Assembly (NCBI GenBank): GCA_046710005.1
Contig: JBKEGM010000001.1
Coordinates: 1-55,856 of the forward strand
Source: Natrialbaceae archaeon
GTDB taxonomy: Archaea > Halobacteriota > Halobacteria > Halobacteriales > Natrialbaceae
Direction: 5' to 3'
Length of the DNA: 55,856 bases
The notes under the pieces are model-generated. The model searched no databases. It had not been told where the DNA came from and saw only the letters and a list, made by a program, of their open reading frames with translations. Made by a program: the position numbers and the translations under genes. Shown here in pieces: positions 6,409 through 55,090 of the stretch (position 1 is the first letter of the stretch; every line of letters starts with the position of its first letter).

Positions 6409-6528
6409 GCGCGGACACACTTTCGCCCTCTCGGACTCGGGGGCATTCCCCCTACAGTGGTATTGCAACTGAACGTATCCGGGTCTTGTACTTAAGGGCA
6501 ACGAATCCCAGGGAGGGGTTCTGAATCC

Positions 6529-20314: not shown

Positions 20315-20737
20315 TTGGGTATGAGCGCGGACCAGAAACAGGAAACGATTCGGTGTCTCGTAGCCAAGGTCGGCCTCGACGGCCACGATCGCGGAGCCCA
20401 CGTCATCGCGCGGGCGTTTCGCGACGCCGGCTTCGAGGTCATTTACTCGGGGCTGCACAAGTCCCCCGAGGAGATCGTCCAGGCGACCGTCCAAGAGGAC
20501 GTCGATGTGCTGGGTATTTCAATCCTCTCGGGCGCGCACAACGCCCTCATCCCCAAGATCATCGACGGGCTGAAAGACTACGGCGCCTACGAGGACACGC
20601 TCGTCATTGCAGGTGGAATTATCCCGGACGAAGACAAGGACCAACTCAAGGGGGAGGGGGTTTCGGAGGTCTTCGGTCCCGGTACCGAGATGGAGGAGAC
20701 CATCGAATTCGTTAGGGAGAACGTCCAGGAGCGATGA
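20315..20737 (+). CDS. methylmalonyl-CoA mutase, cobalamin-binding (small) subunit
   Basis: 'KVGLDGHDRGAHVIARAFRDAGFEVIYSG...VLGISILSGAH' contains the DxHxxG B12-binding motif. Confidence 0.92.
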   Translation: MGMSADQKQETIRCLVAKVGLDGHDRGAHVIARAFRDAGFEVIYSGLHKSPEEIVQATVQEDVDVLGISILSGAHNALIPKIIDGLKDYGAYEDTLVIAGGIIPDEDKDQLKGEGVSEVFGPGTEMEETIEFVRENVQER

Positions 20738-32753: not shown

Positions 32754-33097
32754 ACCCTGACAACCCGGGTGTGCGCGCATTAAGCGTTCCCCCGGAATTC
32801 CCATAGTATTCTGGGCCAGGTTGATAGCATCGTTTGTATGGTGACTTCAGGTCCGATGAGCAGGTTTTCCCAGTATTCTCACCGCTCCTTCCATCAGATA
32901 ATCGCACAATACGGGGCCCCCAACGACTCGGTCAATCAGGACAGGTTACGGCTCTCGTCGCTTGTTCCGGTCAGGAGGCCGAATACGAGGCCGTCAAACC
33001 ACCGGGCCGCCGTGGTAGGTGTACCACTATCTTCGTCATGGTGTCGACCCACCCTGGGGGTTCTTCAAAATTTCCGGGGGGACTCACCCCTGTCTGA

Positions 33098-35529: not shown

Positions 35530-37035
35530 TTAGGGCAGGACGGCCGCTGCCGCGTCGAACCCGACGCCCGAGAGCACGCCGAAGGCAGGGAGCAACGCCA
35601 CGGTCGCGATCGCGGCTACGACGATTGCGGTGTAGATCCCGACCGGTTGTGAGGTGATCTCGAATCCACCATCGGACTCTTCGAACCACATGGCCTTGAC
35701 CACTCGAGAATAGTAGAACAGTGAGAGCGCGCTATTGATGGCACCGACGGCCGCCAGCCACCAGAAGCCAGCGTTAACCGCGCCGGCAAACAGAGCGTAC
35801 TTCGTGAGGAAGCCGCCCCCCACGGGCAGGCCGGCAAGGCTGAATAGGAAAATGGTCATCGCGACCGAGGCGATCGGCGCCCGGGAGGCCAGGCCGTTGA
35901 AGTCCTCAAACGTCCGGCCGACGTCCCAGTACTCGGTCAGCGAGATGAACAAGAACGCCCCGGTGTTCATGAACCCGTAGACGAACAGGTGCAGGAGGCT
36001 CGCGCCGACCAGCAACTGGTTGTTCCCGCCGGCCGAAAGCGCGGCGATCCCGATGAACACGTAGCCAGCGTGACCGATGGATGAATATGCCAGCATGCGC
36101 TTGACGCGTGTCTGGGTCGCAGCCGCGAAGTTCCCGAGAGTCATCGTGAGAACGGCGACAATCTGGGCAACCAGTACCCAGTCGACAAGACCGGGTTCGA
36201 CGACTGTTTCGAGTGGGAAGGCGACGGTTAGCACGCGGATGACCAGTGCAAACCCGGCTGCCTTCGAAGCGGAGGAGAGGAACGCGCTGATCGGGGCGGG
36301 TGCGCCCTCGTAGGCCTCCGGCGCCCAGAAGTGGAAGGGGACGCTGGCGGTCTTGTAGAGGAACCCGCCGATGATCATCACGATCCCCAAGCCGAGCACG
36401 CCCACCTGGTCACCGACGCCAGCGTCGATAGCGCCGGCGATGTCCGTCAGCAGGAGCGACCCCGTGACGGCGTAGACCAGACTGACGCCGTAGATCAGAA
36501 TGGCCGTCGAAAGCGCGCCGATTAGGAAGTACTTCAGCCCGGCCTCGACGCTGCCCCGGTTGCGTTTGAGGAACGCGACGAGCACGTACGACGGGAGACT
36601 CGCCAGTTCGAGGCTGATGGCGACCGTCGACAAACTGTTGGCGCTGGCCATGAGGGCCATTCCGGTGGCGGCCAACAATACGAGCGCGTTAAACTCGCAC
36701 TGGTAACTGTGGCCGGCGAGGTAGTCGTAACTCGCCAGGAGGACCAGGAACGTCACGCTGGCGACCAGCACGCCGAAGAACAGGCTCATCTGGTCGACGA
36801 TCAGCTGGTTCTCGAAGAGGGTGAAGATTCCCTCACCCGCGGGATCGCCGACACCATTCGCAAAGAGCCAGACTCCAGCCACGACCGCGAGGAGCGTTCC
36901 GATCCCAGACATCCCCAGGAGTTCCTTCCGGTTGCACGATCTGGGCAGGATGGCATCGACCGTTAGCAACAACAGGGCCGTTACACCCAGGATCAGCGGG
37001 ACCGCAAGCGTCGCGATCTGTGGCAGTTGTACCAT
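35530..37035 (-). CDS. nuoN: NADH-quinone oxidoreductase (complex I-like) subunit N
   Basis: 501-aa, about 14-TM antiporter-like subunit. Last gene of the nuo operon. Confidence 0.92.
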   Translation of the reverse strand: MVQLPQIATLAVPLILGVTALLLLTVDAILPRSCNRKELLGMSGIGTLLAVVAGVWLFANGVGDPAGEGIFTLFENQLIVDQMSLFFGVLVASVTFLVLLASYDYLAGHSYQCEFNALVLLAATGMALMASANSLSTVAISLELASLPSYVLVAFLKRNRGSVEAGLKYFLIGALSTAILIYGVSLVYAVTGSLLLTDIAGAIDAGVGDQVGVLGLGIVMIIGGFLYKTASVPFHFWAPEAYEGAPAPISAFLSSASKAAGFALVIRVLTVAFPLETVVEPGLVDWVLVAQIVAVLTMTLGNFAAATQTRVKRMLAYSSIGHAGYVFIGIAALSAGGNNQLLVGASLLHLFVYGFMNTGAFLFISLTEYWDVGRTFEDFNGLASRAPIASVAMTIFLFSLAGLPVGGGFLTKYALFAGAVNAGFWWLAAVGAINSALSLFYYSRVVKAMWFEESDGGFEITSQPVGIYTAIVVAAIATVALLPAFGVLSGVGFDAAAAVLP

Positions 37036-38597
37036 CAGGCACCACCTCCCAGTGCGAGTGCGGTCGAGTCGAACAGCGGCTGGACCGAGTCACGGATCAT
37101 CCCGAAGAACGCCTCCGGTGCAACGCCAAGGATCACGATCAGCGCGAGCAGTGCGAACAGAGGCAGGACGTCCTGCATCGGCGCCCGCCCGATTTCGTAG
37201 TCGGTTTGGAGATCGAACGGCCCGAACAGCGTCCGCTGCATCGCGAACAGGAGGTAGCCGGCGACCACGACGATGCCGAACATCGCAACCGCGGTGAACA
37301 GTTCGGATGCCGGGAGCGCCTCTGCGCCGAAGGATCCGACGAACACGAAGAACTCGCCGGCGAACCCGGACATCAGTGGAAGTCCCATGTACCCGAAGGC
37401 GCCAGCGACGAACACCCCAGCCGTGACTGGCATCCTGTCTGCCACGCCCGACATATCGCCGACCATCCGAGTGTGGGTCTCGTTGTAGATGACGCCGACG
37501 ACCATGAACATCAGCCCCGAGATGAGACCGTGACTGACCATCTGGAAGGTCGCGCCACCCATCCCGTAGGTCGTGAATGCAACCAGGCCGAGGATCACGT
37601 AGCCCATCGATGAGATTGACGAGTACGCGACGATCCGTTTCAGGTCCTGTTGGGCCAGCGCGAGGACCGCCCCGTAAAGGACACTGAAGACCGCGACGAC
37701 CGCGATCGGGACCGCGAGATCACGTGCGACGTCCGGGAGCATCGTGAAGTTGAACCGAAGCAGAGCGTAGGTCCCCATCTTCAGGAGGACGCCTGCTAGG
37801 AGCACCGAGGCGGGGGTCGGGGCCTCGACGTGTGCGTCGGGAAGCCAGGTGTGGACAGGAACGGCCGGCACCTTGACCGCGAACCCGATGAACATGGCGA
37901 GGAACGATAGCAGTTTGAGCGTCTCCGCGCCGATGACGCCGGCGTAGGCGTCCGGCGCAACCCCATCCACGGCGAGGGCCTGTGCGATGGCTGGCAAGTC
38001 GAAACTCGTCACCGCATCGCCCAGGCCGAACACCAGCGCGACGAACCCGATGAACATCACCAGGCTGGCCACGTTGGTGTAGACGAAGAACTTGATCGCG
38101 GCGTACTTCCGGCGCGGGCCGCCCCAAACGCCGATCAGGAAGTACATCGGAACGAGGACGGCCTCCCAAAAGACGAACCAGACGATGAAGTCCAGCGCGG
38201 TGAACACGCCCAGCAGGGCCGTCTCCATGAACAGGACGAGCCCGTAAAACTGCGACTGGCGCTCGTCGATGGGCGTCCAGGCGCTGACGATGGCCAACGT
38301 GGTAAGCACCGTCGTCAGAATCAGCAATGGGAGGCTGATCCCATCGACGCCGACGTGCCAGTGGATCGAGTACGGTTCCAGGACGGCCCAGGCGAACTCC
38401 TCTTCGAAGGCCAGTGAGCCCCCGAGTAGGGCGTTGCCCGCACCGTCGAATTGACTATACATCCAACCGCTGCCGAGAAGCGGCACCAGGCTGGCGAGAA
38501 ACGCCAGGCGGCCGGCGTACTCGTCGGGTGCGAGGAAGACGCCGAACGAACCGATCAACGTGAGCGCGAGCAGTATTTCGATAATCATGCGAACCAC
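37035..38597 (-). CDS. nuoM: NADH-quinone oxidoreductase subunit M
   Basis: 520-aa antiporter-like subunit. 'VPVHTWLPDAHVEAPTPASVLLAGVLLKMG' is the NuoM/ND4 signature. Confidence 0.93.
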   Translation of the reverse strand: MVRMIIEILLALTLIGSFGVFLAPDEYAGRLAFLASLVPLLGSGWMYSQFDGAGNALLGGSLAFEEEFAWAVLEPYSIHWHVGVDGISLPLLILTTVLTTLAIVSAWTPIDERQSQFYGLVLFMETALLGVFTALDFIVWFVFWEAVLVPMYFLIGVWGGPRRKYAAIKFFVYTNVASLVMFIGFVALVFGLGDAVTSFDLPAIAQALAVDGVAPDAYAGVIGAETLKLLSFLAMFIGFAVKVPAVPVHTWLPDAHVEAPTPASVLLAGVLLKMGTYALLRFNFTMLPDVARDLAVPIAVVAVFSVLYGAVLALAQQDLKRIVAYSSISSMGYVILGLVAFTTYGMGGATFQMVSHGLISGLMFMVVGVIYNETHTRMVGDMSGVADRMPVTAGVFVAGAFGYMGLPLMSGFAGEFFVFVGSFGAEALPASELFTAVAMFGIVVVAGYLLFAMQRTLFGPFDLQTDYEIGRAPMQDVLPLFALLALIVILGVAPEAFFGMIRDSVQPLFDSTALALGGGA

Positions 38598-40600
38598 CCT
38601 CCGGTAACGCTCAGGATGAGCAGCAATCCGATCAGCCCGAGCGCAAGCAATGCGGCGTAGTTGGTCACGATACCTGTCTGGATCTGTTTGATCCGCCGTC
38701 CGCTAAAGAGACTGACCGACGAGACGCCATCGACGACCCCGTCGATGACCCCCTGATCGAAGGTGTCGGCCGCCTTGGCGAACGGATAGGTCACGCCCTC
38801 AGCCAGCCAGACCTGGTACTCGTCCTGATAGTAGTTGTTGAACCAAAGCGTCTTGAGCCAGCCGAGTTTGTCGGTGTGCTGGATGGGTTCCGGCACGGCG
38901 TAGAGCCGGTAAGCAAGCAGGACGCCTGCCAGGGCGATTCCCAGCGAGACGAGAGCCGGGAGCAGGGGGCTCAGATCGGCTGCTGAATAGCTCGCGTAAT
39001 CGTGCAGGAGGCCACTGTAGTGGTGGGCCGTCAGCATTTCCATTTCTTCAGGCCCGTTCAGCCACTGGTGAAGGTAATCGATCTCGGGACCGAGCAGTTT
39101 CTTCACCGGCGCCATGTTGATGAGGCCGGCGACGGTCGCCAGCGTCCCCAGCACGACCAGCGGGAACTTCACGTTCCAGCGAACGCCGTCGGGATCCTCC
39201 GCCCTCTCGGTTCGGGGCTCGCCGTGGAAGGTCAGGAACACCATCCGGAAGGTGTAAAACCCGGTGAGGAACACGGCGATGAGGCCCATAGCGTAGGCCC
39301 CGAGCAGGAGCGGCGTGTTCAGCCCGTGGATGAGGGCTTCATAGAGCACCTCGTCCTTCGACCAGAAGCCCGCAAACGGGAAGATGCCTGCCAGCGCGAG
39401 CGATCCGGCAAGGAACGTCCAGTAGGTCACGGGCATTCGATCCTTCAGGCCACCCATGTCCCACATGTTCTCGTTGTGGTGCATGGCGATGATGACCGAC
39501 CCGGCACCAAGGAACAACAGCGCCTTGAAGAAGGCGTGGGTCATCAGGTGGAAGGTCGCCGCGACGTACCCGCCCGCCCCAAGCGCGAGCATCATGTACC
39601 CATACTGGGAGATGGTCGAGTACGCCAGCACCTGCTTGAGTTCCTGTTTCACCGTCGCCATGGTCGCGGCCAGCAGCGCGGTGAAGCCGCCGACGAACGC
39701 TATGATGGCGAGCGCGGTCGGTGACAGCGCGTAAAGCCCGTACATCCGGGCGACCAGGTAGACGCCGGCCGCGACCATCGTCGCCGCGTGGATGAGCGCC
39801 GAGACCGGCGTCGGGCCCTCCATCGCGTCCGGCAGCCAGGTGTGTAAGGGGAACTGCGCCGATTTGCCGATGACGCCGCCGAGAACGAGCAGCGAGAGAA
39901 TCGTGATGCCCGTTTTGGGCGCGAAGCCGAGAACCTGTTCGCTATTTTTGATGGCTTCCTCGGCCAGCACTGGGAAGGCCTCTTCGCCCACGAACAAGCC
40001 GGAACCGAATGCGGTGAAAATCCCGACCACGCCAACGAGGAAGAAGTAGTCCCCGAACCGGGTGACCAGGAACGCCTTCTTGGCCGCGCTCGGCGGGCCA
40101 GGTTCGCGGAACCAGAAGCCGATCAGGAGCCACGAGCACAGCCCCACCAGTTCGAAGAACATGAATGCCATCAAGATATTGTCAGCCATCACGAACGCGA
40201 GCATCGAGAACGAGAACAGCCCCATCGAAGCGTAGTACCGGGGCAGGCCCGTCTCGCCCTCGTCGTTCATGTACCCCAGGCTGAACACCTGCACAAGGAA
40301 GGTGATCAACGAGACGATCACGAGCATGTAAGCCGATAGCGGGTCGATGAGCGCGCCGAAGTGAAGTTCGAGCGCGTCCGCTGGCGACCAGACGTATAGG
40401 GTCTCGTGATAGAGGTTTCCACCTGCGACCGCGATTGCAGCCCAGATCGAGAGTAACAGCGAGCCTCCGGTTGCCAGTATCGTGGCAAAGGCGCCACCCT
40501 TTGGCATGTAACGCCCGAAGGCCAGGGCCACGACGAATGCGACGAGTGGGAGCGCGGCGATGGCCGGTGCGAACGTGAACGCGATGTGTTCTCCTGCCAT
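38585..40600 (-). CDS. nuoL: NADH-quinone oxidoreductase subunit L
   Basis: 671 aa. 'FPLHTWLPDAMEGPTPVSALIHAATMV' is the NuoL/ND5 signature, with a long C-terminal lateral-helix region. Confidence 0.93.
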   Translation of the reverse strand: MAGEHIAFTFAPAIAALPLVAFVVALAFGRYMPKGGAFATILATGGSLLLSIWAAIAVAGGNLYHETLYVWSPADALELHFGALIDPLSAYMLVIVSLITFLVQVFSLGYMNDEGETGLPRYYASMGLFSFSMLAFVMADNILMAFMFFELVGLCSWLLIGFWFREPGPPSAAKKAFLVTRFGDYFFLVGVVGIFTAFGSGLFVGEEAFPVLAEEAIKNSEQVLGFAPKTGITILSLLVLGGVIGKSAQFPLHTWLPDAMEGPTPVSALIHAATMVAAGVYLVARMYGLYALSPTALAIIAFVGGFTALLAATMATVKQELKQVLAYSTISQYGYMMLALGAGGYVAATFHLMTHAFFKALLFLGAGSVIIAMHHNENMWDMGGLKDRMPVTYWTFLAGSLALAGIFPFAGFWSKDEVLYEALIHGLNTPLLLGAYAMGLIAVFLTGFYTFRMVFLTFHGEPRTERAEDPDGVRWNVKFPLVVLGTLATVAGLINMAPVKKLLGPEIDYLHQWLNGPEEMEMLTAHHYSGLLHDYASYSAADLSPLLPALVSLGIALAGVLLAYRLYAVPEPIQHTDKLGWLKTLWFNNYYQDEYQVWLAEGVTYPFAKAADTFDQGVIDGVVDGVSSVSLFSGRRIKQIQTGIVTNYAALLALGLIGLLLILSVTGGWFA

Positions 40601-40601
40601 T

Positions 40602-40907
40602 TTACCACCTCATCGTCGTCGGGACAGTTACGTCGACGTCACCGAAGTTGCGGTGCAGCACCAGGATGATGCCAATGCCAACGGCAACCTCGGCGGCGGC
40701 CAGTGCCATGACGAACAGCGCGAAGACTTGGCCGGTGAGGTTCCCGTGATAGATGGAGAAGGCCACGAAATTCACGTTTGCAGCGTTGAGCATCAACTCG
40801 ACTGACATCAGAAAGACCAGCGCGTTGTTCCGAGTAAGGACGCCGAACAGCCCGATAGCAAACAACGCTGCCGAAAGCAGCATGTAATACTGGAGTGATG
40901 CCGTCAT
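40602..40907 (-). CDS. nuoK: NADH-quinone oxidoreductase subunit K
   Basis: 101-aa, 3-TM ORF '[18 protein letters not shown]' (ND4L family). Confidence 0.93.
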
Positions 40908-41296
40908 CGATTATCCTCCTCTTCGTCGGCTGGGCGCCCGGCATCCGTTTCTTCGGAACCCCAGCGATGATCAACCTCGGATCGGAGTGCAGTCACGACC
41001 TCGCCATCGACCTCACGACGAGCGAGCGTAACGCCCCCGACGAGTGCGGCCACGAGGACGAAGGCTATCATCTCGAACTGCGCAAGGAATCCCTCCGTCT
41101 CTGTCGAGACCGTCGCGACGTCGATATTTATCAGGGAGAAACCGATCGCCCCTGTGACGCTATCGATACCCTCGAACCCGGCCGGATCCCCGAACGATGC
41201 CGTCGAGATGATCGCGGCCATGAGGGCGAACAGTCCCAGGGCAACGATCCCCGGTAGCAAGTGTCGCCCCAGGTTCAGTTCCGGTTTCGTCGTCAC
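40904..41296 (-). CDS. nuoJ2: NADH-quinone oxidoreductase subunit J, C-terminal part (J2)
   Basis: 130 aa. '...[22 protein letters not shown]' corresponds to the C-terminal NuoJ helix. Split nuoJ is usual in haloarchaea. Confidence 0.8.
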
Positions 41297-41565
41297 GCGC
41301 CTTCGACCTCCGGTTCCATTGTCTCAGTACGCGTTAGCATCACGGCGAACGTGATCAGGATCAAAACGCCGCCCACGTACACGAGTATCTGTATCGCAGC
41401 GACGAACTCGGCTTCCACCATCACGTAATGCACCGCGACGCTGAGGAGCGCTCCCCCGAGGAACAGTGCGGAGTGCCACACGTCTCGGACGAGCACCACG
41501 CCCAGACTGCTCGCCAGGGTCACAGCGGCGAACAGCGCAAACGCGAGTGTCTCGTACGCAACCAT
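41293..41565 (-). CDS. nuoJ1: NADH-quinone oxidoreductase subunit J, N-terminal part (J1)
   Basis: 90 aa. 'FLGGALLSVAVHYVMVEAEFVAAIQILVYVGGVLILITFAVML' is the ND6/NuoJ core. Confidence 0.85.
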   Translation of the reverse strand: MVAYETLAFALFAAVTLASSLGVVLVRDVWHSALFLGGALLSVAVHYVMVEAEFVAAIQILVYVGGVLILITFAVMLTRTETMEPEVEGA

Positions 41566-41625
41566 AATTATCCCTACCGAAGGGACACCCTTTGAAGAAT
41601 TCGGTTTCGGCAGAGAAAGCCCTCA

Positions 41626-41637
41626 TTTAAATTATAT
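41626..41637 (-). promoter_or_regulatory. TATA-like element inside the nuoI-nuoJ1 gap (candidate internal promoter)
   Basis: 'TTTAAATTATAT' (ATATAATTTAAA on the coding strand) lies 60-70 nt upstream of the nuoJ1 ATG. It sits in the only sizeable (121-bp) gap of an otherwise overlapping operon. Confidence 0.3.
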
Positions 41638-41686
41638 CTTTTGACGCCTCTGGAAAGGCCGCATGGACGATGAAACGGATGCCCCT

Positions 41687-42148
41687 CTACATATAATCGA
41701 CGTCACCATCGCCTTCGCCGACCCAGGCATTCCGTTCCGACTCCCGGGCCTGGACCGGGTCGACGTCTTTGTACCATGGGACGTTCTTGAGTTCCTCCTT
41801 GTTGAACACCGTGTCGTCTTTGGTGTCGCCCGTGAATTCGAAATTCTGTGTGAGGACGATGGCTTCGACCGGGCACACCTCCTCACAGAGTCGACAGTAG
41901 ATACACTGCCCGACATGAAGATCGTACTCCTCCCCATTCCGATCTTCGTCCATCTCGATGTGAATGGTGTCGTTCGGGCAGACCTCCTCACACTGGCGAC
42001 ACCAAATACACCGATCCTCGCTCCACTTGTGAACCCCACGGAATCTGGGACTGACCTCCGGCTCGTCTTCCGGGTACTTGACCGTGAAGGTCTCTCCGTC
42101 GAGGGCGTGGCTCATCGTCGCTGCCAGGGACTTCAGCATCCCGATCAT
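41687..42148 (-). CDS. nuoI: NADH-quinone oxidoreductase subunit I (2x[4Fe-4S] ferredoxin-like)
   Basis: Start 'MIGMLKSL' overlaps the nuoH stop. Cluster motifs 'CIWCRQCEEVCP' and 'CIYCRLCEEVCP'. Confidence 0.93.
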   Translation of the reverse strand: MIGMLKSLAATMSHALDGETFTVKYPEDEPEVSPRFRGVHKWSEDRCIWCRQCEEVCPNDTIHIEMDEDRNGEEYDLHVGQCIYCRLCEEVCPVEAIVLTQNFEFTGDTKDDTVFNKEELKNVPWYKDVDPVQARESERNAWVGEGDGDVDYM

Positions 42149-43212
42149 GCGATCACCCCCACGATGATTGCCGTGAGAACCAGGTTCGCGAACGACAGCT
42201 CCAGCAGCCCTTTCCAACCGATTTGGATGAGTTGGTCGATCCGAACCCGGGGGACTGCCGACCGAGCCCACTGGGTCAGGAGGAACACGGCCCAAATTTT
42301 CAACGTGAACCAGACGATGCCCGGGAGGACGGGACCGTGCCAGCCGCCAAGGAACAACGTCGCGATGATCGCGGCCCCGAGGAAGATGTGAAGGAATTCA
42401 CCCAGGTAATACAGGACGAAATACACGGATCCGTACTCGGTCTGGTACCCGCCCACGATTTCGGTGGGCGCTTCCGGCGTGTCGAACGGGTTACGTCCGA
42501 TCTCGGCCATGTTCGCCGCGATGAACAGGACGAACGCGAAGGGGTTGACGAACGCGAACCACTGTGGGATCTGGATGCCGCCAATCTCGACGAGTGTCTG
42601 GTGCTGGACGGCGATGATCTCGGTGATCTGGAGACTTCCGACGAAGATAACCACCGAGGCACCAGTAATGACTAGCGGAATCTCGTAGGCGATGTTCTGT
42701 GCGATCGCCCGCAACCCGCCAAGCAGCGAGTACTTGTTGCTCGACGCATACCCGCCCATGACCAGTCCCAGCGATGCGAGCGACGAGACGGCGAACACGT
42801 ACACCAGTCCGATCTCCGGATCGGCAACCTGAATGCCAGGATGGATCGGGATGACTGCGAACCCAAGCAGTGCCGATAACGGGACGAGGATTGGTGCGAG
42901 GTCGAACGCCGGCCGATCCACGTTCTCCGGAATGATGAGTTCCTTCGAGAGCAACCGAAGTGAGTCGACGACGATCGTCCCGATGCCTGCAGGACCGACG
43001 CGATTAACGGAGATGCGGTCCGTGAAGGCGGCCGTGATCTTCCGCTTTGCCCACGGTCCCGCGACTGCTGCGTTCAATAGGACGAACGAGCCGATGAGCG
43101 TGGCCCCTATCAAGCTAGCAAGGGTTTCACCCGGAACGCCGAATTCCCCGAGGCCGAGCAGATCCGAAATCATCTCGGGAAGCAAAATCCCGGGAAACGC
43201 CATCGGCGTCAT
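42145..43212 (-). CDS. nuoH: NADH-quinone oxidoreductase subunit H
   Basis: Start 'MTPMAFPG' overlaps the nuoCD stop (ATGA). 'AEIGRNPFDTPEAPTEIVGGYQTEYG' is the ND1 signature. Confidence 0.93.
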   Translation of the reverse strand: MTPMAFPGILLPEMISDLLGLGEFGVPGETLASLIGATLIGSFVLLNAAVAGPWAKRKITAAFTDRISVNRVGPAGIGTIVVDSLRLLSKELIIPENVDRPAFDLAPILVPLSALLGFAVIPIHPGIQVADPEIGLVYVFAVSSLASLGLVMGGYASSNKYSLLGGLRAIAQNIAYEIPLVITGASVVIFVGSLQITEIIAVQHQTLVEIGGIQIPQWFAFVNPFAFVLFIAANMAEIGRNPFDTPEAPTEIVGGYQTEYGSVYFVLYYLGEFLHIFLGAAIIATLFLGGWHGPVLPGIVWFTLKIWAVFLLTQWARSAVPRVRIDQLIQIGWKGLLELSFANLVLTAIIVGVIA

Positions 43213-44882
43213 CGATCCACCTCCCCGAGGACGATGTCGAGACTGCCTAACGACGCCACGAGGTCGGCGATGTATTCGCCTTCGGACATCTCCGGAAGCG
43301 TCTGGAGGTTGCTGAAACACGGACTCCGGATCTTGAACCGTGCCGGCTTGTCAGTGCCGTCCGAACGCATGTAGATGCCCAGTTCGCCTTTGGCGCCCTC
43401 GACAGCCCGATACACTTCCTTGCCAGCCTCCGGCTTCAGCGTCCGGGGAACGTTGGCCTGGATGTTTCGTTCGTCCGCCGGCCAGTCCTCGAGCAGATCC
43501 ACGCACTGCTGGATAATTTTGGCGGATTCCTCGACTTCTCGAAGGCGGACGAGCACGCGACTAAAGTTGTCCCGGCCGTCCTCCGTGGCGACGTCCCAAT
43601 CGAGTTGGTCATAGTACCCGTATGGATCGTCGCGACGGATGTCGTAGTCGACGCCAGACCCCCGGGCGACCGGGCCGGTCGCACCGAGTTGTTTGGCGGC
43701 CTCGGGGTCCAGGATCCCCGTGTCCACGGTTCGCATCTGGAAGATTTCGTTTCGCGTGAGCAGGTCGTGATAATCCTGGAGTGATTGTGGGAGTTCGTCC
43801 AGGAAGTCGCGGATCTTCTCGAAGAATTCCTGGCGGGGTTCGGGGAGATCCCATGCAAGCCCGCCAACGCGAAGGTAATTGAACATCAGACGCTGACCGG
43901 TTAGGTCTTCCAGGATGTTCTGGACGACCTCCCGATCCTTGATCGCGTACATGAACGTGGCAGTGAAGTCACCGACCACGTCCAGTCCGTAGGTCGCGAC
44001 TGCGATCGTGTGGGAGGCGATCCGCGATAGTTCGGCCCCCATCGTTCGGATAACCTGGGCGTAATTGGGGACCTCGATGTCGGCCATGTCCTCGATGGCC
44101 CTGGCATAGGCCCATTCGTTGAGCAGTCCCGACGAGATGTAGTCCCAACGATCGGGATAGGGCATGATCTGGTGGCGGTAGGTGCTTTCCTGGCACATCT
44201 GCTCCTCGCAGCGATGCAGATAGCCGATATCAGGGTCGACGTCAATCACTGACTCACCATCGAGGGTGGTTTTGAGGTGAAGCACACCGTGGGTCGCCGG
44301 GTGGTGCGGACCGATGTTGAGGAACATCGTATCCGAATCGGTGTCCTTGTGATCGTCGGCGATCGGGTTCTTGTGCGCCTCGAGCGTGACGATCTGGGGC
44401 TTATCCTGATCGTAATCCTTCGACAGGGGATGGCCCTGCCAGGTCCGGGGCAGGAGGATCCGGCGCAGGTCCGGATGGTCCTCGTACTGGACCCCGACTA
44501 AATCGTAGGCTTCCCGTTCGTGCCAATCCCCCGTCCGGTAAACCGGGGCGCTGGATTGGCTAACTGGTTCGTCCCGTGCAGTGGGGACGACCAGGCTCAG
44601 TTCCTGCGTGGGATCGTCGTACTTTTTGAGGTGGTAAATGCTCTCGTAGCGGTCCTCGTACTCCTGGGCGGTGACCAGCGACAAATGATCGAATCCAGCA
44701 TCGTCTCTGAGGGTGTAGAGAACGTCCTGGACGTCGTCAGGGCTGATCACGAACCCTTCCGCGTTGACGTGCGTTTCACGGTCTCGCACTTTTCCGTTTA
44801 GGAGGTCCTCGAGAGCATCGTAATCGAGACCATCCTCGGTGACGCCTACCGCTGGTTCGGATTCCGGTTCCTCGAGGCTCAT
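43209..44882 (-). CDS. nuoCD: NADH-quinone oxidoreductase fused subunits C and D
   Basis: 557 aa. The N-terminal 30-kDa (NuoC) part has 'ERE..D..G' ('HEREAYDLVGVQYEDHPD'). The C-terminal 49-kDa (NuoD) part has 'GPHHPATHGVL' and 'RIRSPCFSNLQ'. Confidence 0.95.
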   Translation of the reverse strand: MSLEEPESEPAVGVTEDGLDYDALEDLLNGKVRDRETHVNAEGFVISPDDVQDVLYTLRDDAGFDHLSLVTAQEYEDRYESIYHLKKYDDPTQELSLVVPTARDEPVSQSSAPVYRTGDWHEREAYDLVGVQYEDHPDLRRILLPRTWQGHPLSKDYDQDKPQIVTLEAHKNPIADDHKDTDSDTMFLNIGPHHPATHGVLHLKTTLDGESVIDVDPDIGYLHRCEEQMCQESTYRHQIMPYPDRWDYISSGLLNEWAYARAIEDMADIEVPNYAQVIRTMGAELSRIASHTIAVATYGLDVVGDFTATFMYAIKDREVVQNILEDLTGQRLMFNYLRVGGLAWDLPEPRQEFFEKIRDFLDELPQSLQDYHDLLTRNEIFQMRTVDTGILDPEAAKQLGATGPVARGSGVDYDIRRDDPYGYYDQLDWDVATEDGRDNFSRVLVRLREVEESAKIIQQCVDLLEDWPADERNIQANVPRTLKPEAGKEVYRAVEGAKGELGIYMRSDGTDKPARFKIRSPCFSNLQTLPEMSEGEYIADLVASLGSLDIVLGEVDR

Positions 44883-45583
44883 GGTGAATCAGCCCAATTG
44901 TAACGCATGACGAGCGTGTCTTTCTCGATGTCCTCCGCGAGTTGTTCGACGAGTTCGTCCCGTTCCAGTTCGTCGAACTGTTCGAGTTCGTACGGTTTAA
45001 CCGTCACGGGGCTGGATTCCCCGTTGGCGATGCGCTCCTGCAACTTGGCGACACCGTAGACCAGTGCTTCTGGTCGCGGCGGGCACCCCGGAACGTGGAT
45101 GTCGACCGGGATGACCTCTTCGGCCCCCTTAATGACGTTGTAGCCCCGCTGGAAGGGGCCCCCCGAGATGGTGCACGATCCCATCGAAACGACGAACTTC
45201 GGCTCGGCCATCTGGTCGTAGACCCGCTTCATCCGGGGGGCGAACTTCGAAACGATGGTCCCCGGGACGATGATCACGTCGGCCTGCCGCGGGGAGGCCC
45301 GTGGGACGCCGGCGTGGAACCGGTCCAGGTCGTGTTTGACCGAGTACGTGTGCATCATCTCGATGCTACAGCAGGCGATACCGAACTGTAGCATGAACAT
45401 CGAGGACCCCCGGGCCCAGTTCATGAACTTATCGAACTTCGTGAGGATGAACGGCGAGACGCCCAGGGCCTCCCGAAGCTTCGAATTAAACCGGTCATCG
45501 AGGCCCGATCCAGTCCGCGCTTCCCGGGTCTTTGTTCGTGGTTCGCTGCTGGCCAACCCGTCGGTGGTTGTGTCCTGACTCAT
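44879..45583 (-). CDS. nuoB: NADH-quinone oxidoreductase subunit B
   Basis: 'GIACCSIEMM', 'MGSCTISGGPF' and 'VPGCPPRPE' are the N2 cluster Cys motifs. Confidence 0.95.
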   Translation of the reverse strand: MSQDTTTDGLASSEPRTKTREARTGSGLDDRFNSKLREALGVSPFILTKFDKFMNWARGSSMFMLQFGIACCSIEMMHTYSVKHDLDRFHAGVPRASPRQADVIIVPGTIVSKFAPRMKRVYDQMAEPKFVVSMGSCTISGGPFQRGYNVIKGAEEVIPVDIHVPGCPPRPEALVYGVAKLQERIANGESSPVTVKPYELEQFDELERDELVEQLAEDIEKDTLVMRYNWADSP

Positions 45584-45586
45584 TTG

Positions 45587-45994
45587 TTAATCTGCTCGTT
45601 GAGTGTTATGTTCCGGGCGGGGACTCGCTGCCCACTCGACCGCCCCATTGCGCCATGCCCAGGCGAGTGGGACGACGAGAATGGCGATGAACACCAGCAT
45701 CGGTACCAGTGCGGTGGCCAGATCGGTCGCTGCGATCGCGTCCTCGTAAATGACCGCCCACGGGAAGATGAGGACGGACTCGATGTCGAAGACGACGAAC
45801 AGCAACGCCACCATATAGTACTGGATGTTGAACCGGATGCGCGTCCCGCCAGTCGGGACCTCGCCGCTCTCGTATGTGGCGCGTTTGTCTCGTTCAGGGA
45901 CGCTGGGCCGTAAGAGGGCCGAAACCACGATCATCAGGACTGGGATGCCCACTCCGACGACCGCGAACGCCCCGATGGCGATCCATTGGTTCAT
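45587..45994 (-). CDS. nuoA: NADH-quinone oxidoreductase subunit A
   Basis: 135-aa, 3-TM ORF. 'YESGEVPTG...FNIQYYMVALLFVVFDIESVLIFPWA' is the ND3 signature. Confidence 0.92.
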   Translation of the reverse strand: MNQWIAIGAFAVVGVGIPVLMIVVSALLRPSVPERDKRATYESGEVPTGGTRIRFNIQYYMVALLFVVFDIESVLIFPWAVIYEDAIAATDLATALVPMLVFIAILVVPLAWAWRNGAVEWAASPRPEHNTQRAD

Positions 45995-47888: not shown

Positions 47889-48500
47889 TTACTCGAAGTG
47901 GCCGATGCTCGTCTGGTACTCCTCGGCGGCCGTGTCCCAGTTGACGACCTCGAAGAAGGCGTCGATGAAGCTCCCCCGATCGGGACCGTAATCGTAGTAG
48001 TAGGAGTGTTCCCAGACGTCGAGTGCGAGAATCGGATGCGCCCCCCAAAGGGCCCCCTGGTCGTGCTTGTCGACTTTCACGTTCCGAAGCTGTTTCGCCA
48101 CTGGATCGTAGACCAGTAGAGCCCAGCCCCCGGCAGCGCCGGCCGCAGCCTCGAATTCGCCCTTCCAGCCTTCATAAGAGCCGAAATCTTCCTCGATTCG
48201 ATCTCGAAGGTCGCCGTGGGGTTCGCCGCCGCCGTTCGGCGACATGCAGTCCCAAAACAGATGGTGTAGGTAGTGCCCACTACCGTTATGGGTCACGTTG
48301 CCGAGGGCGCCCGGCGTGGAGGCATAATCGCCTGCGGCCCGGTTTTCCTCCAGCGTTTCCTCGGCGGCGTTGAGACCGTTGACGTAGCCCTGATGGTGCG
48401 TATCGTGGTGCCAGGTGAGGACCTGTTCGCTGATGTGCGGTTCGAGTGCGTCATAGTCGTACGGGAGCGGTGGTAGCTCCGCGTGTGATTTCTCGGACAT
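47889..48500 (-). CDS. sod: Mn/Fe superoxide dismutase
   Basis: 'LPPLPYDYDALEPHISEQVLTWHHDTHHQGYV' and the signature 'DVWEHSYYYDY'. The start was taken at 'MSEKSHAEL'. Confidence 0.95.
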   Translation of the reverse strand: MSEKSHAELPPLPYDYDALEPHISEQVLTWHHDTHHQGYVNGLNAAEETLEENRAAGDYASTPGALGNVTHNGSGHYLHHLFWDCMSPNGGGEPHGDLRDRIEEDFGSYEGWKGEFEAAAGAAGGWALLVYDPVAKQLRNVKVDKHDQGALWGAHPILALDVWEHSYYYDYGPDRGSFIDAFFEVVNWDTAAEEYQTSIGHFE

Positions 48501-48623
48501 GACCTGATGCCTCATTCCGTCACGTAGGCGTGATGAATGTTAAATGTTGAGGAGCCGATTGATACCAAATATCATGGTCGAAACCACCGTACTGGCGTCA
48601 CCACGGCGGTCTCCCGGTGGCGG

Positions 48624-50106: not shown

Positions 50107-50946
50107 TCAGTTGAGGATCGATTGGGCAACCGTGGCCAGTTGGGCGTCGTCAGCCTGCGTGAGGCGGGGATCGCCCAGTTTGAGGCGAAGACGCGGTCGT
50201 CCCACGTCGACCGGTACCTTTTCGGTGTCGATCAGGCCCATTTCCTCGAGTTTGGTCTTGGTGCGCGAGAACGTCGCTTTCGACGCCAGGCCGATGTCTT
50301 CGCCCCACTTGCTCACGTCATACAGCAGTTCCTCGTTTTTGGCTGCGATGAGGAGGCTGATCGTCACCTCGTCGAGGCCGTCACCGTCACCCCGAGCCGT
50401 CTCGAGCGAGGAGAGAACGCCGTTGAAATCCTCATGGGCATCCTCGCCCAGGTCCGTGGAGAGTGTCTCCTTGATCTCTGTGATCGGCGGCGTCCGGAGG
50501 CGGTGCTCGTCCGCCGTTTCCCAGAGTTCCTCGTATCCGGACCGTACCTCGGTCACGAACGAACGGTCGTCGGTGACGATCCCGCCCTCGCGATCACCGA
50601 CGGTGACGAGCGAGACGGCCTCTCCCTTCGTGGCGATGACCGGATTGGTCGGTGGGTCTTCGAGCGTTTTGAGTTCGAGTTCGTCGCGGGTCAAGAGGTC
50701 AGCCGCGCTACTCGCGACGATGAAGTCTTCCAGTACGTCCTTGAGTGTTCGGTAGTCCGCGAGCAACCGAACGGTGACGTCGTACTTGTTGGCGTTGCCC
50801 TTGTCGACGTAGGCTTCGATCGCGTCGGGGGACGGGTTGACCAGATATACCGTTCCGGTGGCGGTCGAAAGGGTCTCGTCGACGATTTCGCCGAGCCGCT
50901 TGTCGAGTAAATTCGATACCATGCCTTCAGAACCGTTAACAACCAT
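50107..50946 (-). CDS. haloarchaeal transcription regulator with C-terminal TrmB-like winged helix
   Basis: 279-aa acidic ORF. The C-terminus 'LYDVSKWGEDIGLASKATFSRTKTKLEEMGLIDTEKVPVDVGRPRLRL' is an HTH-plus-wing pattern. I do not recognise the N-terminal domain. Confidence 0.68.
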   Translation of the reverse strand: MVVNGSEGMVSNLLDKRLGEIVDETLSTATGTVYLVNPSPDAIEAYVDKGNANKYDVTVRLLADYRTLKDVLEDFIVASSAADLLTRDELELKTLEDPPTNPVIATKGEAVSLVTVGDREGGIVTDDRSFVTEVRSGYEELWETADEHRLRTPPITEIKETLSTDLGEDAHEDFNGVLSSLETARGDGDGLDEVTISLLIAAKNEELLYDVSKWGEDIGLASKATFSRTKTKLEEMGLIDTEKVPVDVGRPRLRLKLGDPRLTQADDAQLATVAQSILN

Positions 50947-51102: not shown

Positions 51103-51507
51103 CTAGTCGGAGTCTTCCTCTTCCTCGTTTTCTTCTCCGCGGGCCATCGCCTGTGCTTGCTGGGCCGGTTCAGCGTCGGCCGGACTCGGTGCGTCAGGTT
51201 GATCGAGGAGGGCCTCGAAGTCGTCCACCTCGCCGTACTGGTCGCGGTACATGAGCGCCACGCGGCCTTTCCGCGTGATTTCATACAAGCCGGAGTGTTC
51301 GGCCGGACCGATCTTGCGAACCAGTTTGTAGTCGTCCAGGACCGGCAGACGGGTATTGATATTCTTTCGACTCTTGTCGGTGTGGTGCGCGAGATTCGTG
51401 GCAACGTTGCGGCCATTTTCCTCGAGCGCCTCCAGGATCAGGAAATCGGTTGGTCGTCGAAGTTTCACGAGTTGATCCACCTGTTTGTTTCCAATAGTGA
51501 CTTCCAT
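51103..51507 (-). CDS. winged-helix DNA-binding protein (PhiH1-repressor-like/MarR-like)
   Basis: 'DFLILEALEENGRNVATNLAHHTDKSRKNINTRLPVLDDYKLVRKIGPAEHSGLYEITRKG' followed by an acidic tail. Confidence 0.78.
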   Translation of the reverse strand: MEVTIGNKQVDQLVKLRRPTDFLILEALEENGRNVATNLAHHTDKSRKNINTRLPVLDDYKLVRKIGPAEHSGLYEITRKGRVALMYRDQYGEVDDFEALLDQPDAPSPADAEPAQQAQAMARGEENEEEEDSD

Positions 51508-51813: not shown

Positions 51814-52122
51814 TTAATCGCTCGCCCGCCCGTTGACCGTTTCGTGGATGCCGAGGACGAATGCAGGGACGACCACGATGAACAGGTGTTCCTCGATCGG
51901 TATGCCGAGGAGATCAACCCCGGTTCGGAGTTCGATCGAAAAGACCCCGACTTTGAGGGTGTACCAGTCCCACACGTAGGCAATCGGATAGAGGGCCAGG
52001 ATCGTCCGTCCGGCGCTTCGAAATGCCTGTGCCCGAAAGAGAAGGATCCATGCGACGGTACCGAACAGTGCCTCAGTAACGAGGTACGTGTACGAGCCAA
52101 AGACGCCGATGTCCGGTAGCAT
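51814..52122 (-). CDS. lycopene cyclase domain protein (single CrtYc/CrtYd-type half)
   Basis: 102-aa, 3-TM ORF. 'YLVTEALFGTVAWILLF...YVWDWYTLKVGVF...GIPIEEHLFIVVVP' matches the heterodimeric lycopene cyclase repeat ('PxEE' motif). Confidence 0.78.
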   Translation of the reverse strand: MLPDIGVFGSYTYLVTEALFGTVAWILLFRAQAFRSAGRTILALYPIAYVWDWYTLKVGVFSIELRTGVDLLGIPIEEHLFIVVVPAFVLGIHETVNGRASD

Positions 52123-52269
52123 GGCCGTCTCTTAGCTTCCGAGAACTAAACCTCGTCGCCCGTTTGCTGTCGGATGGGCTGCGGTGCTGACGACGGTTAT
52201 TATCACAATTCTTTCATCGCCTCCGGTCGGTACGTTCATTATCGTTCGTAGTCAACGCTCGAAGGAACA

Positions 52270-53427
52270 ATGGACATTGCTGATATCGCGACAACGGAGT
52301 ATCTCGAAGTTGGCGTCGATACCCGCCTCGGAAAGGTTCGGTCCATTTTCGAGGAAGAAAACCCGAAGGGAATCGTCGTCACGCGCGACGGCGAGTACGA
52401 GACCGTCCTGGGAGAGCGCGAACTCATTCAGTCCCACGTCGAGGACAACGCCAAGGTCGAATCGTTGATCAAACCGAGTCGAACGGATCCGGTTCCGAAG
52501 ATCGACCGCAACGAGGGCATTCGGGAGGCCGCACGAATGCTCATCGAGGGCAATACCAAGGTTGCACCGGTATTCGAGGGGGACCAACTCTACGGCATCA
52601 TTAACCAGGACCTTATCCTGAAGATGGTGCTGGACAACCTTGACGCGCTGTCGGTTGGGGACATCTACACGGACGAGGTCATCACGCTCCAGGATGGCGA
52701 CGGCGTCGGCAAGGCGATCAACCGTCTTCGAGAGCACGGCATCTCGCGCGTGCCGGTACTGGACGAAAAAGAGTACCTCACGGGCATGGTCACTGTCCAC
52801 GACATTGCGGACGTCGTCGTTCGGGACATGACCAAGGCGACGACGGGCGACCGGTCGGGGGACATCGATAGGATCCTCGACATTCCTGTGGCGGACATCA
52901 TGAGTTCACCCGTCGAGACGACCACGGCGGGCGAGTCAGTGAGACACGCTGTCGAGCGAATGCTCGAACAGGATTACGCCGGACTCGTCGTCACCCCGGA
53001 CGATGACGATCGGGTCGTGGCTGGAGTCCTGACGAAGACGGACGTCCTCCGGGCGTTGACCTACACCGAACAGGACTACATGGACGTTCAAATTACGAAC
53101 ATCTCGCTGTTGGACACGATCTCGCGTGAGGACATTCGCAAGGAAATCGGGTCCGTCGCGGAAAAATACCAGGACATGCAGGTGCAACACGCCCACGTCC
53201 GCTTCCACGAGCACAAGGAGAAACTCCGGGGCACGCCACTCATTCGCGCCCAGATCCGCCTCCGGACGAACCGGGGGCAGATGGCCGGGTCGGGCGAGGG
53301 CTATGGTTCCGAGAACGCGTTCTACGTTGCGCTGGACAAACTCGAACGAAACGTCATCGAAACGAAGGGCATGATCAGCGACGAGGAGTATCGCGGCCAA
53401 CTCCTGCGGAAACTCGACGAACTCTAG
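52270..53427 (+). CDS. four CBS domains fused to an HPF/RaiA (S30AE)-like ribosome-hibernation domain
   Basis: Residues 1-270 form four CBS motifs. Residues 271-385, 'MDVQITNISLLDTISREDIRKEIGSVAEKYQD.QVQHAHVRF...IRAQIRLRTNRGQMAGSGEGYGSENAFYVALDKLERNVIETKG', follow the HPF/YfiA pattern. Confidence 0.85.
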   Translation: MDIADIATTEYLEVGVDTRLGKVRSIFEEENPKGIVVTRDGEYETVLGERELIQSHVEDNAKVESLIKPSRTDPVPKIDRNEGIREAARMLIEGNTKVAPVFEGDQLYGIINQDLILKMVLDNLDALSVGDIYTDEVITLQDGDGVGKAINRLREHGISRVPVLDEKEYLTGMVTVHDIADVVVRDMTKATTGDRSGDIDRILDIPVADIMSSPVETTTAGESVRHAVERMLEQDYAGLVVTPDDDDRVVAGVLTKTDVLRALTYTEQDYMDVQITNISLLDTISREDIRKEIGSVAEKYQDMQVQHAHVRFHEHKEKLRGTPLIRAQIRLRTNRGQMAGSGEGYGSENAFYVALDKLERNVIETKGMISDEEYRGQLLRKLDEL

Positions 53428-53685
53428 CCCGGACCGAAACCGACCGCGAATGTGCTGCCCGGATCCCAGAGTAGGTATCGACGGGCCCAGGAACGTTTTG
53501 TCACTGTCGATCTGCAGACCTGGTTTGGCTGGATATCGCTGCGGCCGGCGGGAATTGGTTCGTTCTGGACCGTCAGTGGCGGCACCCCTCGAAATGATTT
53601 GTCGGTTCGGCGGTGCGGCCCTGTCCGTCGCTGGCTGGGGCCCCTAATGCCAACCCTCTAGTAATTCCCTTTCCTTTGTTAATAT

Positions 53686-54105
53686 ATGGCCGTCGTCAGC
53701 GTCTCAATGCCGGAACAGCTTATCGATCGAATCGACGGAATCGCCGACGAACACGGCTACACGGGCCGTAGCGAGGTCCTTCGGGAGGCCGCACGAAATC
53801 TGCTTGGCGAGTTTGAGGACAAGGAACTCGAGGATCACGAGTTGATGGCGGTTGTCACCGTGTTGTTCGATTACGGGGCCGAACCCGTCGAACGGCGGAT
53901 GATGCAACTTCGCCACGAGTACGATTCGCTCGTCCAGTCCAACGTCCACAATCACGTCGGCGACCGGTACTGTACCGAACTGTTCGTCCTGGACGGGTCG
54001 CTGGAAGACATCTCGACGTTCGTCGGCAAAATACGCGCAACCAAGGACACCCTATCGGTCGATTACTCGGTAATGCCTGTCGACGAGGTGGGAACCGTCA
54101 CGTGA
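53686..54105 (+). CDS. nikR: nickel-responsive regulator NikR (RHH + ACT-like metal domain)
   Basis: N-terminal RHH '[38 protein letters not shown]'. C-terminal metal-site residues '[12 protein letters not shown]' and 'AVVTVLFDY'. Confidence 0.88.
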
Positions 54106-54670
54106 GGAAAGGAGATATTGGGCATGGCAAGCCGACAGGAACGGGGTGGATCCGAACGGGCAGTTTGAATCCGAAGGACACCGGGCATGGGGAGCGGCTC
54201 GGTAGATAGTTCCTGTCGACACTTTCTGTTTGGGGCTATTCAACTATAAACCTCTTGAATAGTAAAAAGGATTTTTACCTTATCGAAATCCGGTTTGTGG
54301 CTGACGGTTGGAGGCGAAATTCATTCTGTCTCCCTTGGAAATCGTCCGGGCGCTAACGTTGCAATTTCTCTCCATGTGATGGCCCAACATGGGTCGATGA
54401 CGATGGTATTCAATTGAAAGGTTCCGGGGGGCACCGGAACGACGACCAAACCCCCGTTACCCTTCGGACGCCCTGTCAGAATCGCCCGTTTTGTGAGGAT
54501 CGATATCCCGGGACTCAGCGTCGATATTGTCGTTCGAACGGGATACGCATTGGTGGTGTGTTGTCACGTGGGTACCAGGGCGGCAACTCGTCGAAAGAGC
54601 TATCGACTGTGGCATGGTATAACGAAACAAGGAATCCGCGGGCGAGACACGCTTCCGGTTCGCTAACGCC

Positions 54671-54934
54671 GTGCTTAACGGTGCCGAGGGAATCGTTGAT
54701 AGGGTCTATGTGGTCCCCGAGTACCGACGGCGTGGTATCGGAACTGACCTTTTCGAGTTCACGATCGAGGAACTGACGGACCGAGGCGTCGAACGATTCG
54801 TCGCCCTGGCCCTCGCGGGAAACGACGTGGCCGCCGATTTCTTTGACGTAGCGGGTTTCGAACGGATGGGGACGGATAGCACGACAATCGCCGGCGAAGA
54901 GTACGACGAAATTGTTTTCGAACGAAGAATCTGA
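54671..54934 (+). pseudogene. GNAT-family acetyltransferase, C-terminal fragment only (probable remnant)
   Basis: The 87-aa ORF holds the acetyl-CoA motif A 'VYVVPEYRRRGIGTDLF' and motif B. An in-frame TAA at 54620-22 leaves at most about 100 aa, and no GNAT N-terminal half appears in any upstream frame. Confidence 0.5.
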
Positions 54935-55090
54935 GCAGTGGACTGGACCGATTCTTATCGGTTGGGTTGACTTCCCGGATCGCGACTGAACCCGACGATC
55001 GCTCTGGACCACGAACGGATCGGACCGGGGACCGTCGCTATCGCTTCGGGGGCCAAGTCATATGGTGTCGTTCCACATATTTGTCCCCAC

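Follow-up and report, generated by a model that had tools for sequence, protein, structure and literature searches.

A CBS-tetrad protein with an HPF/RaiA-like domain in an uncultured Natrialbaceae archaeon is very probably an ortholog of the haloarchaeal ribosome hibernation factor AHA

Does a gene that would ordinarily be labelled only as a CBS protein encode a factor that acts on the ribosome? This question is raised by a gene of 385 codons in a 55,856-nucleotide stretch of DNA from an uncultured Natrialbaceae archaeon (assembly GCA_046710005.1, contig JBKEGM010000001.1, positions 1 to 55,856 of the forward strand; hereafter the window). An initial annotation, made from the letters of the sequence, had described its product as a fusion of four CBS motifs to a domain resembling the bacterial hibernation factor HPF/YfiA, and had proposed that it might shut off translation in a ligand-gated manner. 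The open reading frame (ORF) was checked for its ATG start and stop codon, and its translation agrees with the sequence quoted in that annotation.

52270..53427, + strand: coding sequence (385 residues plus stop) of the probable AHA/HibA-family ribosome hibernation factor

The encoded protein is, in our assessment, very probably orthologous to AHA (HVO_2384) of Haloferax volcanii, and with it a member of the archaeal HibA/AHA family of hibernation factors. The analyses described here establish its domain architecture, its fold, its full-length homology and orthology, the conservation of its adenosine monophosphate (AMP) motifs and of its peptidyl transferase centre (PTC) loop, and the action of purifying selection.

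The window protein aligns end to end with two archaeal chains in the PDB. One is 9sr9_H, Pyrococcus abyssi HibA on the ribosome, an identification that follows from the citation of entry 9SR9 in the HibA paper; phmmer matched it at E=1e-40 across residues 3-383 of the window protein, with 29% identity by BLASTP. The other, 9l96_a from Haloferax mediterranei, was matched at E=1e-63 with 35% identity, and an exact sequence match showed it to be a 406-residue protein encoded on a megaplasmid of H. mediterranei ATCC 33500. Among haloarchaea, 119 homologs are 68-91% identical to the window protein. The set of related loci used below comprises 81 loci (L001-L081); the scan of a genome collection gave as its best 80 loci members of the Natrialbaceae, Haloarculaceae and Halobacteriaceae, with none from Haloferax among those 80. 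Against the closest relative, a Natrialbaceae metagenome-assembled genome with 90% protein identity, the ratio of nonsynonymous to synonymous substitution rates (dN/dS) is 0.08 for the whole gene and 0.04 for residues 271-385, which hold the HPF domain and its tail; purifying selection on the gene is strong. All of the sequence and structural hallmarks of HibA/AHA for which an outcome was obtained here were found in the window protein.

The fusion of a CBS tetrad to an HPF domain is a known family, already described structurally, genetically and phylogenetically. The statement in the initial annotation that no experimental work existed on this architecture is thus out of date: at least three papers appeared in 2025-2026, from three groups, on HibA (Nat Commun 2026), on AHA (bioRxiv 2026) and, in a note, on HVO_2384 (mBio 2025), and the Joint Genome Institute (JGI) labels some homologs ‘CBS domain-containing protein/ribosome-associated translation inhibitor RaiA’. 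Surveys find the fusion in ~47% of archaeal genomes and count 3,160 homologs. In P. abyssi HibA, studied by cryogenic electron microscopy (cryo-EM), the CBS module spans residues 1-269 and the HPF/RaiA-like domain residues 270-392; inhibition of translation requires the C-terminal domain, AMP is bound with a dissociation constant of 12 uM, and deletion of the Thermococcus barophilus gene causes a longer lag and ~60% fewer 70S ribosomes (PMC13324472). Cryo-EM of AHA/HVO_2384 on the 70S ribosome places the HPF domain in the 30S channel for mRNA and in the A and P sites, and the CBS tetrad on the 50S subunit; loop 3 of the tetrad sits in the PTC, and two AMP molecules are bound at CBS3/CBS4. In stationary phase the AHA knockout loses 32 ribosomal proteins as well as viability and competitiveness, and its regrowth is delayed (PMC12934967).

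The link to AHA in particular comes from proteomic data. Seven tryptic peptides of HVO_2384, reported with acetylation site numbers in the supplement to an acetylome study (PMC10294847), are co-linear on the window protein, where 75 of 109 residues are identical (69%), compared with 48 of 109 on the long haloarchaeal paralog discussed below. The peptide FHEHKEKLR is identical in both proteins. The register between HVO_2384 and the window protein is offset by 0 at the N-terminus and by exactly +5 in the C-terminal half, with K311, K313 and K361 of HVO_2384 falling on K316, K318 and K366, the last of which corresponds to acetyl-K361. Orthologs of 380 residues carry K311/K313 and have masses of 41.9-42.8 kDa, and the published mass of HVO_2384 is 42,521 Da. 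Peptide co-linearity, site numbering and mass together identify the window protein as the ortholog of H. volcanii AHA. On the evidence of the +5 offset and of the 380-residue orthologs, HVO_2384 is probably 380 residues long, as against 385 for the window protein; its K50 is R50 here, and the two come from different families, the Haloferacaceae and an uncultured member of the Natrialbaceae.

53212..53223, + strand: H315-K316-E317-K318 in strand beta2, with K316/K318 matching the acetylated K311/K313 of HVO_2384 (PMC10294847)

The N-terminal part of the protein bears out the claim that residues 1-270 hold four consecutive CBS motifs: Pfam recognises four CBS stretches there (E=1e-32), with a score of 112.6 bits where the cutoff is 24, and four CBS units are visible in the AlphaFold model. 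When the full-length model was submitted to Foldseek it returned CBS-tetrad matches only, with SriA/B, AMPK-gamma, MJ1225 and Dri at the top (E=1e-15 to 1e-21). The following features lie within this region.

52270..53079, + strand: N-terminal CBS tetrad, residues 1-270, forming two Bateman modules (Pfam, AlphaFold model and Foldseek)
52783..52803, + strand: CBS3 ribose-phosphate motif G172-M-V-T-V-H-D178, of the form G-h-h-T-x-x-D (homolog alignment)
52822..52887, + strand: predicted PTC loop, residues 185-206 (gapless alignment to the P. abyssi HibA loop)
53023..53043, + strand: CBS4 ribose-phosphate motif G252-V-L-T-K-T-D258 (homolog alignment)

Canonical G-h-h-T-x-x-D motifs occur in CBS3 and CBS4 only, the matching positions of CBS1 and CBS2 being degenerate. 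In all 54 aligned homologs, G172, T175, H177 and D178 of the CBS3 motif and G252, T255, T257 and D258 of the CBS4 motif are invariant. This pattern fits the two AMP sites of AHA, and the window protein is predicted from its motifs to bind AMP. The loop at residues 185-206 has the same length as the PTC loop of P. abyssi HibA, to which it aligns without gaps, and contains eight invariant residues (R185, G193, R195, G197, D198, R201, D204 and P206). It was modelled with a low predicted local distance difference test (pLDDT) score (55-58), as might be expected if the loop takes on an ordered form only when bound to the ribosome.

Haloarchaea possess two deep types of CBS-HPF protein, as a search with the H. 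mediterranei sequence revealed: one of ~385 residues (380 in Haloarculaceae and Halobacteriaceae), which ends in the tail ...SDEEYRGQLLRKLxEL, and one of ~405 residues. The window protein is 68-91% identical to members of the first type and 33-37% identical to those of the second, which is also the range of identity between the types. In the ~405-residue type the segment from the CBS3 motif to CBS4, the loop region, has ~25 additional residues, CBS2 carries a third canonical G-h-h-T-x-x-D motif (GVVTADD), and the basic tail is different (...KKPRDAEYWEKRFG...). Both types are encoded on one 3.35-Mb contig in Natronorubrum aibiense (P0101 and P0293) and both occur in N. thiooxidans (P0067 and P0264). 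The megaplasmid-encoded H. mediterranei protein (P0331; PDB 9L96, 9L98, 9L9C and 9L9V) shares the architecture of the window protein and is its deep paralog, belonging to the ~405-residue type; a literature search found no paper on its 9L96 entries.

The existence of two such types might be taken to mean that the window protein is a functionally diverged family member, for instance a sequestered or regulatory variant rather than a working hibernation factor, since the types are only 33-37% identical, often co-occur in one genome (N. aibiense is an example), and include, in the H. mediterranei protein of the 9L96 entries, a representative of the other paralog type. The window protein, however, belongs to the type of H. 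volcanii AHA, for which there are both a knockout phenotype and a ribosome structure; the PTC loop and the AMP motifs are preserved in it; and the strong purifying selection on its gene speaks against divergence. We therefore regard such a departure from AHA-like function as very unlikely.

The C-terminal part comprises a domain and a short extension.

53080..53367, + strand: HPF/RaiA-like domain, residues 271-366 (sub-threshold PF02482 match, family scan, profile, models and Foldseek)
53368..53424, + strand: C-terminal helical tail, residues 367-385 (...SDEEYRGQLLRKLDEL), an archaeal extension past the bacterial HPF core (model)

The tail is modelled as a helix and is the most conserved segment of the protein, with a mean column identity of 0.91. 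In an otherwise acidic protein, the HPF domain has an isoelectric point of 8.1, compared with 4.4 for the CBS part.

As the initial annotation had noted, the domain begins at an internal ATG (residue 271, nt 53080, a methionine). This position could in principle serve as a start from which residues 271-385 are also made separately, as a stand-alone HPF-like protein: Met271 is conserved in at least 90% of Natrialbaceae sequences, stand-alone HPF-like proteins exist in archaea, and one 115-residue database protein that consists of the HPF-like domain only (P0122; 74% identity) starts exactly at the equivalent of Met271. P0122 may, however, be a fragment from a contig edge. In other lineages position 271 is L or I, which marks it as the first, hydrophobic residue of strand beta1 and not as a conserved start, and the fused ORF is single and uninterrupted at all 81 related loci. 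Separate production of the domain thus appears highly improbable, and the internal ATG has no special meaning.

The likeness of residues 271-385 to HPF/YfiA, first seen by eye, is weak when the single sequence is considered; it is backed by the homologs, by a profile, by structural models and by Foldseek. When 54 homologs were each scanned alone, 52 matched PF02482 at E<=0.01 (best 1.7e-4), so the signal is a property of the family and not the chance product of one sequence. Searched exhaustively with phmmer against 1.84 billion representatives, the 115-residue domain gave 79 relatives. A profile built from 41 diverse C-terminal domains (mean column identity 37%) was run against all PDB sequences; after two archaeal proteins, bacterial HPF/RaiA/YfiA/protein Y chains accounted for 18 of the 21 other matches, and several bacterial HPF-family chains aligned over the whole domain. 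AlphaFold2 modelled the C-terminal domain with the strand-helix-three strands-helix order that the initial annotation had expected of it (strand 272-276, helix 286-298, strands 305-319, 322-333 and 336-345, and helix 347-365), with a pLDDT of 79.7 for the full-length model and 92.0 for the domain alone. With the domain-only model, which was used to assess the HPF fold, the first 33 Foldseek matches in the PDB were all members of the HPF/RaiA/YfiA/pY/RafH group, with a probability of 1.00 and target-normalised template-modelling scores of up to 0.78. The relation of the C-terminal domain to HPF/RaiA is one of remote homology, and its sub-threshold score and its fusion to a CBS tetrad place it outside the curated bacterial family.

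These searches also bear on whether the domain has instead a generic fold like that of double-stranded RNA-binding domains (dsRBDs), which would make the protein a nucleotide-sensing RNA binder unrelated to hibernation. One NCBI name given to a paralog points in that direction (‘two CBS domains (some fused to C-terminal double-stranded RNA-binding domain’), as does the sub-threshold match to PF02482, and dsRBDs do appear in the Foldseek results for the domain model, from rank 34 onwards (E=4e-3 to 5e-2). All 33 better matches, however, are to the HPF group, the N-terminal strand beta1 that dsRBDs do not have is present in the window domain, and there was no dsRBD among the PDB matches of the C-terminal domain profile, which found HPF-family chains. 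In HibA and AHA, moreover, the homologous domains lie at the HPF site of the 30S subunit, and we consider a dsRBD-like RNA binder extremely improbable.

A CBS-tetrad transcription regulator like Pyrococcus yayanosii HhpR is an explanation to which we give next to no credence, for although the CM-3/HhpR CBS tetrads are genuine transcription factors, JGI names several homologs ‘predicted transcriptional regulator/...RaiA’, and the NCBIfam model HhpR (NF053603) partially matches the window protein (E=3e-11), that match reaches 43 bits where the cutoff is 520 and extends over one CBS stretch only, Pfam detected no DNA-binding domain in the window protein, HhpR does not have the HPF domain that the window protein carries, and both the full-length alignment with ribosome-bound HibA and the orthology to AHA speak against it.

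Read as an AHA ortholog, the window protein would work as its orthologs AHA and HibA have been shown to do. It would bind the ribosome, with the HPF/RaiA-like domain (271-366) occupying the 30S decoding region and blocking the decoding site, while the CBS tetrad (1-270), by analogy with both orthologs, would dock on the 50S subunit, covering its A and P sites, and the loop at 185-206 would enter the PTC. Together the two modules would silence the 70S ribosome and shield it from degradation in stationary phase or under energy stress, a protection that would shorten the lag when growth resumes. The CBS3/CBS4 pair would bind AMP, and the ratio of AMP to adenosine triphosphate (ATP) may tune ribosome binding, in keeping with the current hypothesis in the literature on the HibA/AHA family.

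Several observations count against this reading or narrow it. The function of the protein is known from orthologs, and the source organism is an uncultured member of the Natrialbaceae whose nearest genome shares 90% protein identity with it. The orthology was drawn from 109 peptide residues, a mass and site numbering. The search with PF02482 that the initial annotation had proposed as a check gave a mixed result: a match was found (E=1.1e-3), but its single-sequence score of 20.1 bits lies under the 23.7-bit gathering score, and TIGR00741 (yfiA) gave E=0.048, with 14.1 bits against a cutoff of 40.9. Entries 9L96 and 9SR9 were absent from the Foldseek PDB results. In reconstitutions with HibA, AMP or ATP had no clear effect on ribosome binding (PMC13324472). 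The stoichiometry of AMP also differs, being one per module by isothermal titration calorimetry (ITC) for HibA and two in the AHA map. Nucleotide gating of the HibA/AHA family is a hypothesis, presented as such by the authors of the AHA study (PMC12934967), and release triggered by ATP has been demonstrated only for the separate ARC CBS-tetrad factors. Of the ligand-gated translational shut-off proposed in the initial annotation, the hibernation factor and its binding of adenine nucleotides are thus upheld by work on orthologs, whereas the gating itself is not.

Set beside known systems, the window protein most resembles H. volcanii AHA, which has the same CBS tetrad, the same HPF domain with a long terminal helix and a conserved loop 3, belongs to the same paralog type, is likewise encoded on the chromosome, and holds its two AMP molecules at CBS3/CBS4, where the window protein has its canonical motifs. 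HibA of P. abyssi and T. barophilus (PDB 9SR9-9SRF; PMC13324472) has near-identical domain boundaries and a PTC loop of equal length, but it comes from hyperthermophilic Thermococcales, adopts three conformations of its CBS module, binds one adenine nucleotide per module (ITC) and is of low identity to the window protein. Bacterial HPF/RaiA (PF02482) shares the fold of the window domain at a remote level of sequence homology and, if the orthologs are a guide, would share its 30S site and its steric block of mRNA and of the A- and P-site tRNAs. The bacterial proteins, by contrast, have no CBS module, being either stand-alone proteins of ~95-115 residues or long HPF with a C-terminal dimerisation domain, and are induced transcriptionally via the stringent response, and the window HPF domain differs from them in its archaeal insertions and its longer terminal helix.

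Other CBS tetrads are more distant. SriA-D and ARC-A/P (Methanosarcina, Methanolobus) and Dri (Pyrobaculum) are related tetrads that bind ribosomes and adenine nucleotides. The Sri/ARC proteins are stand-alone tetrads (~260-340 residues) without an HPF domain that act in pairs, mostly on the small subunit, and in a PDB sequence search the Sri chains matched the CBS regions of the window protein only (E=4e-11 to 4e-5); since it has an HPF domain, the window protein is not a member of Sri/ARC. Dri, from the Thermoproteota, has two consecutive tetrads and no HPF domain, whereas the window protein has one tetrad, and the match between them is structural only. AMPK gamma has the same four-CBS fold (Foldseek E ~1e-17 to 1e-18), its sites 3 and 4 corresponding to CBS3 and CBS4, but it serves a kinase heterotrimer as its regulatory subunit, lacks a ribosome-binding domain and is ~17% identical to the window protein.

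An inactive variant of Pat2, a GNAT acetyltransferase, co-purifies with HVO_2384 (PMC12607858), and acetylation of the conserved HKEK lysines may regulate the ribosome-binding domain. We also entertained a broader scheme, in which the two haloarchaeal paralogs are specialised for different stresses or ligands and acetylation of HKEK (K316/K318) acts as a switch for release from the ribosome; this is speculative and on balance doubtful. In the HibA/AHA literature we found no test of either the specialisation or the switch. If the scheme were true, the acetylation switch would be superimposed on AMP sensing as a second level of control.

Upstream of the gene, an alignment of 30 orthologous intergenic regions revealed a conserved block of the type TT-A--ACC (TTAAATAC or TTGATAAC in relatives) at an equal distance from the ATG. 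Judged from its sequence, this TATA-like block probably acts as a promoter, and its position ~31 nt before the ATG would imply a leaderless or near-leaderless transcript. On its other side lies a divergent gene.

52235..52243, + strand: TATA-like element TTCATTATC, centred ~31 nt upstream of the ATG (30 aligned intergenic regions)
51814-52122, - strand: lycopene-cyclase-domain (PF18916) gene, 102 residues, divergent from the hibernation-factor gene

The lycopene-cyclase-domain gene is kept at 62 of the 81 related loci, usually with a gap of 50-150 bp, and a bidirectional promoter region may serve both genes. It is the only conserved neighbour across the 81 loci, which provide no operon context for the hibernation factor, and Rfam found no RNA element near the gene. 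The other nearby genes, with stress and regulatory functions among them, are as follows.

47889-48515, - strand: Fe/Mn superoxide dismutase
50107-50946, - strand: TbsP-like regulator of transcription (matches to the two TbsP domains of Pfam, E=1e-44 and 9e-54)
51103-51507, - strand: small winged-helix protein
53686-54105, + strand: NikR-type regulator
54671-54934, + strand: C-terminal remnant of a GNAT acetyltransferase, 87 residues, motif A present

The TbsP-like regulator, the winged helix-turn-helix gene and nikR are syntenic with the closest relative only, and superoxide dismutase likewise shows no synteny with the hibernation factor beyond that relative. The spacer between the hibernation-factor gene and nikR measures 210 bp in the window (53436-53646), and the closest relative (L002) has ~1.3 kb of extra DNA there (5167-6509). 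Synteny with L002 stops at 54286. Ahead of the GNAT remnant come stop codons in every frame and a patch of 44% GC content (54200-54420) in a window of 60% GC, and the region 54200-54940 probably holds a gene that has decayed at the scar of a rearrangement or insertion. We considered a link between this GNAT and the interaction of Pat2 with HVO_2384 and rejected it, the candidate being a stop-preceded C-terminal remnant that lies past the synteny break and is absent from the 81 related loci.

Farther off, a second CBS gene was considered as a Sri-like stand-alone tetrad and was rejected, having one CBS pair only. It adjoins a TrkA_N-DHH-DHHA1 protein, and the interval 35530-45994 (- strand) holds a gene cluster for respiratory complex I (nuo-type). 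The window is an ordinary haloarchaeal chromosomal region, with the following further features, terminal-oxidase genes among them.

33098-33910, - strand: CBS protein, 270 residues, one CBS pair at ~residues 12-130
33947-35431, - strand: TrkA_N-DHH-DHHA1 protein
45587-45994, - strand: complex I chain 3
44879-45583, - strand: complex I 20-kDa subunit
43209-44882, - strand: complex I fused 30-kDa/49-kDa subunit
42145-43320, - strand: NADHdh/NuoH
38585-40600 and 35530-37035, - strand: two antiporter-like subunits of complex I
13079-14557, + strand: fused CtaA-like (COX15) and UbiA/CtaB prenyltransferase ORF, 492 residues
24830-26677, + strand: cytochrome oxidase subunit I
11315-12187, - strand: cytochrome oxidase subunit III
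1021-2220: enolase
31050-32804 and 20734-21792: methylmalonyl-CoA mutase with MeaB
28855-30834: acetyl-CoA synthetase
3803-3889, - strand: tRNA-Leu(CAG), found by ARAGORN

At its gathering threshold the Rfam tRNA model found a tRNA-Ser (6325-6408) only, and not the tRNA-Leu(CAG) of ARAGORN.

As a discovery the locus is of small value, and the matters that it leaves (AMP/ATP gating, the roles of the two haloarchaeal paralogs, and lysine acetylation of the HPF domain) belong to the family rather than to this gene. Its use lies in annotation: where such a gene usually bears no more than the label ‘CBS domain-containing protein’, this one can be called an AHA/HibA hibernation factor of the AHA type.

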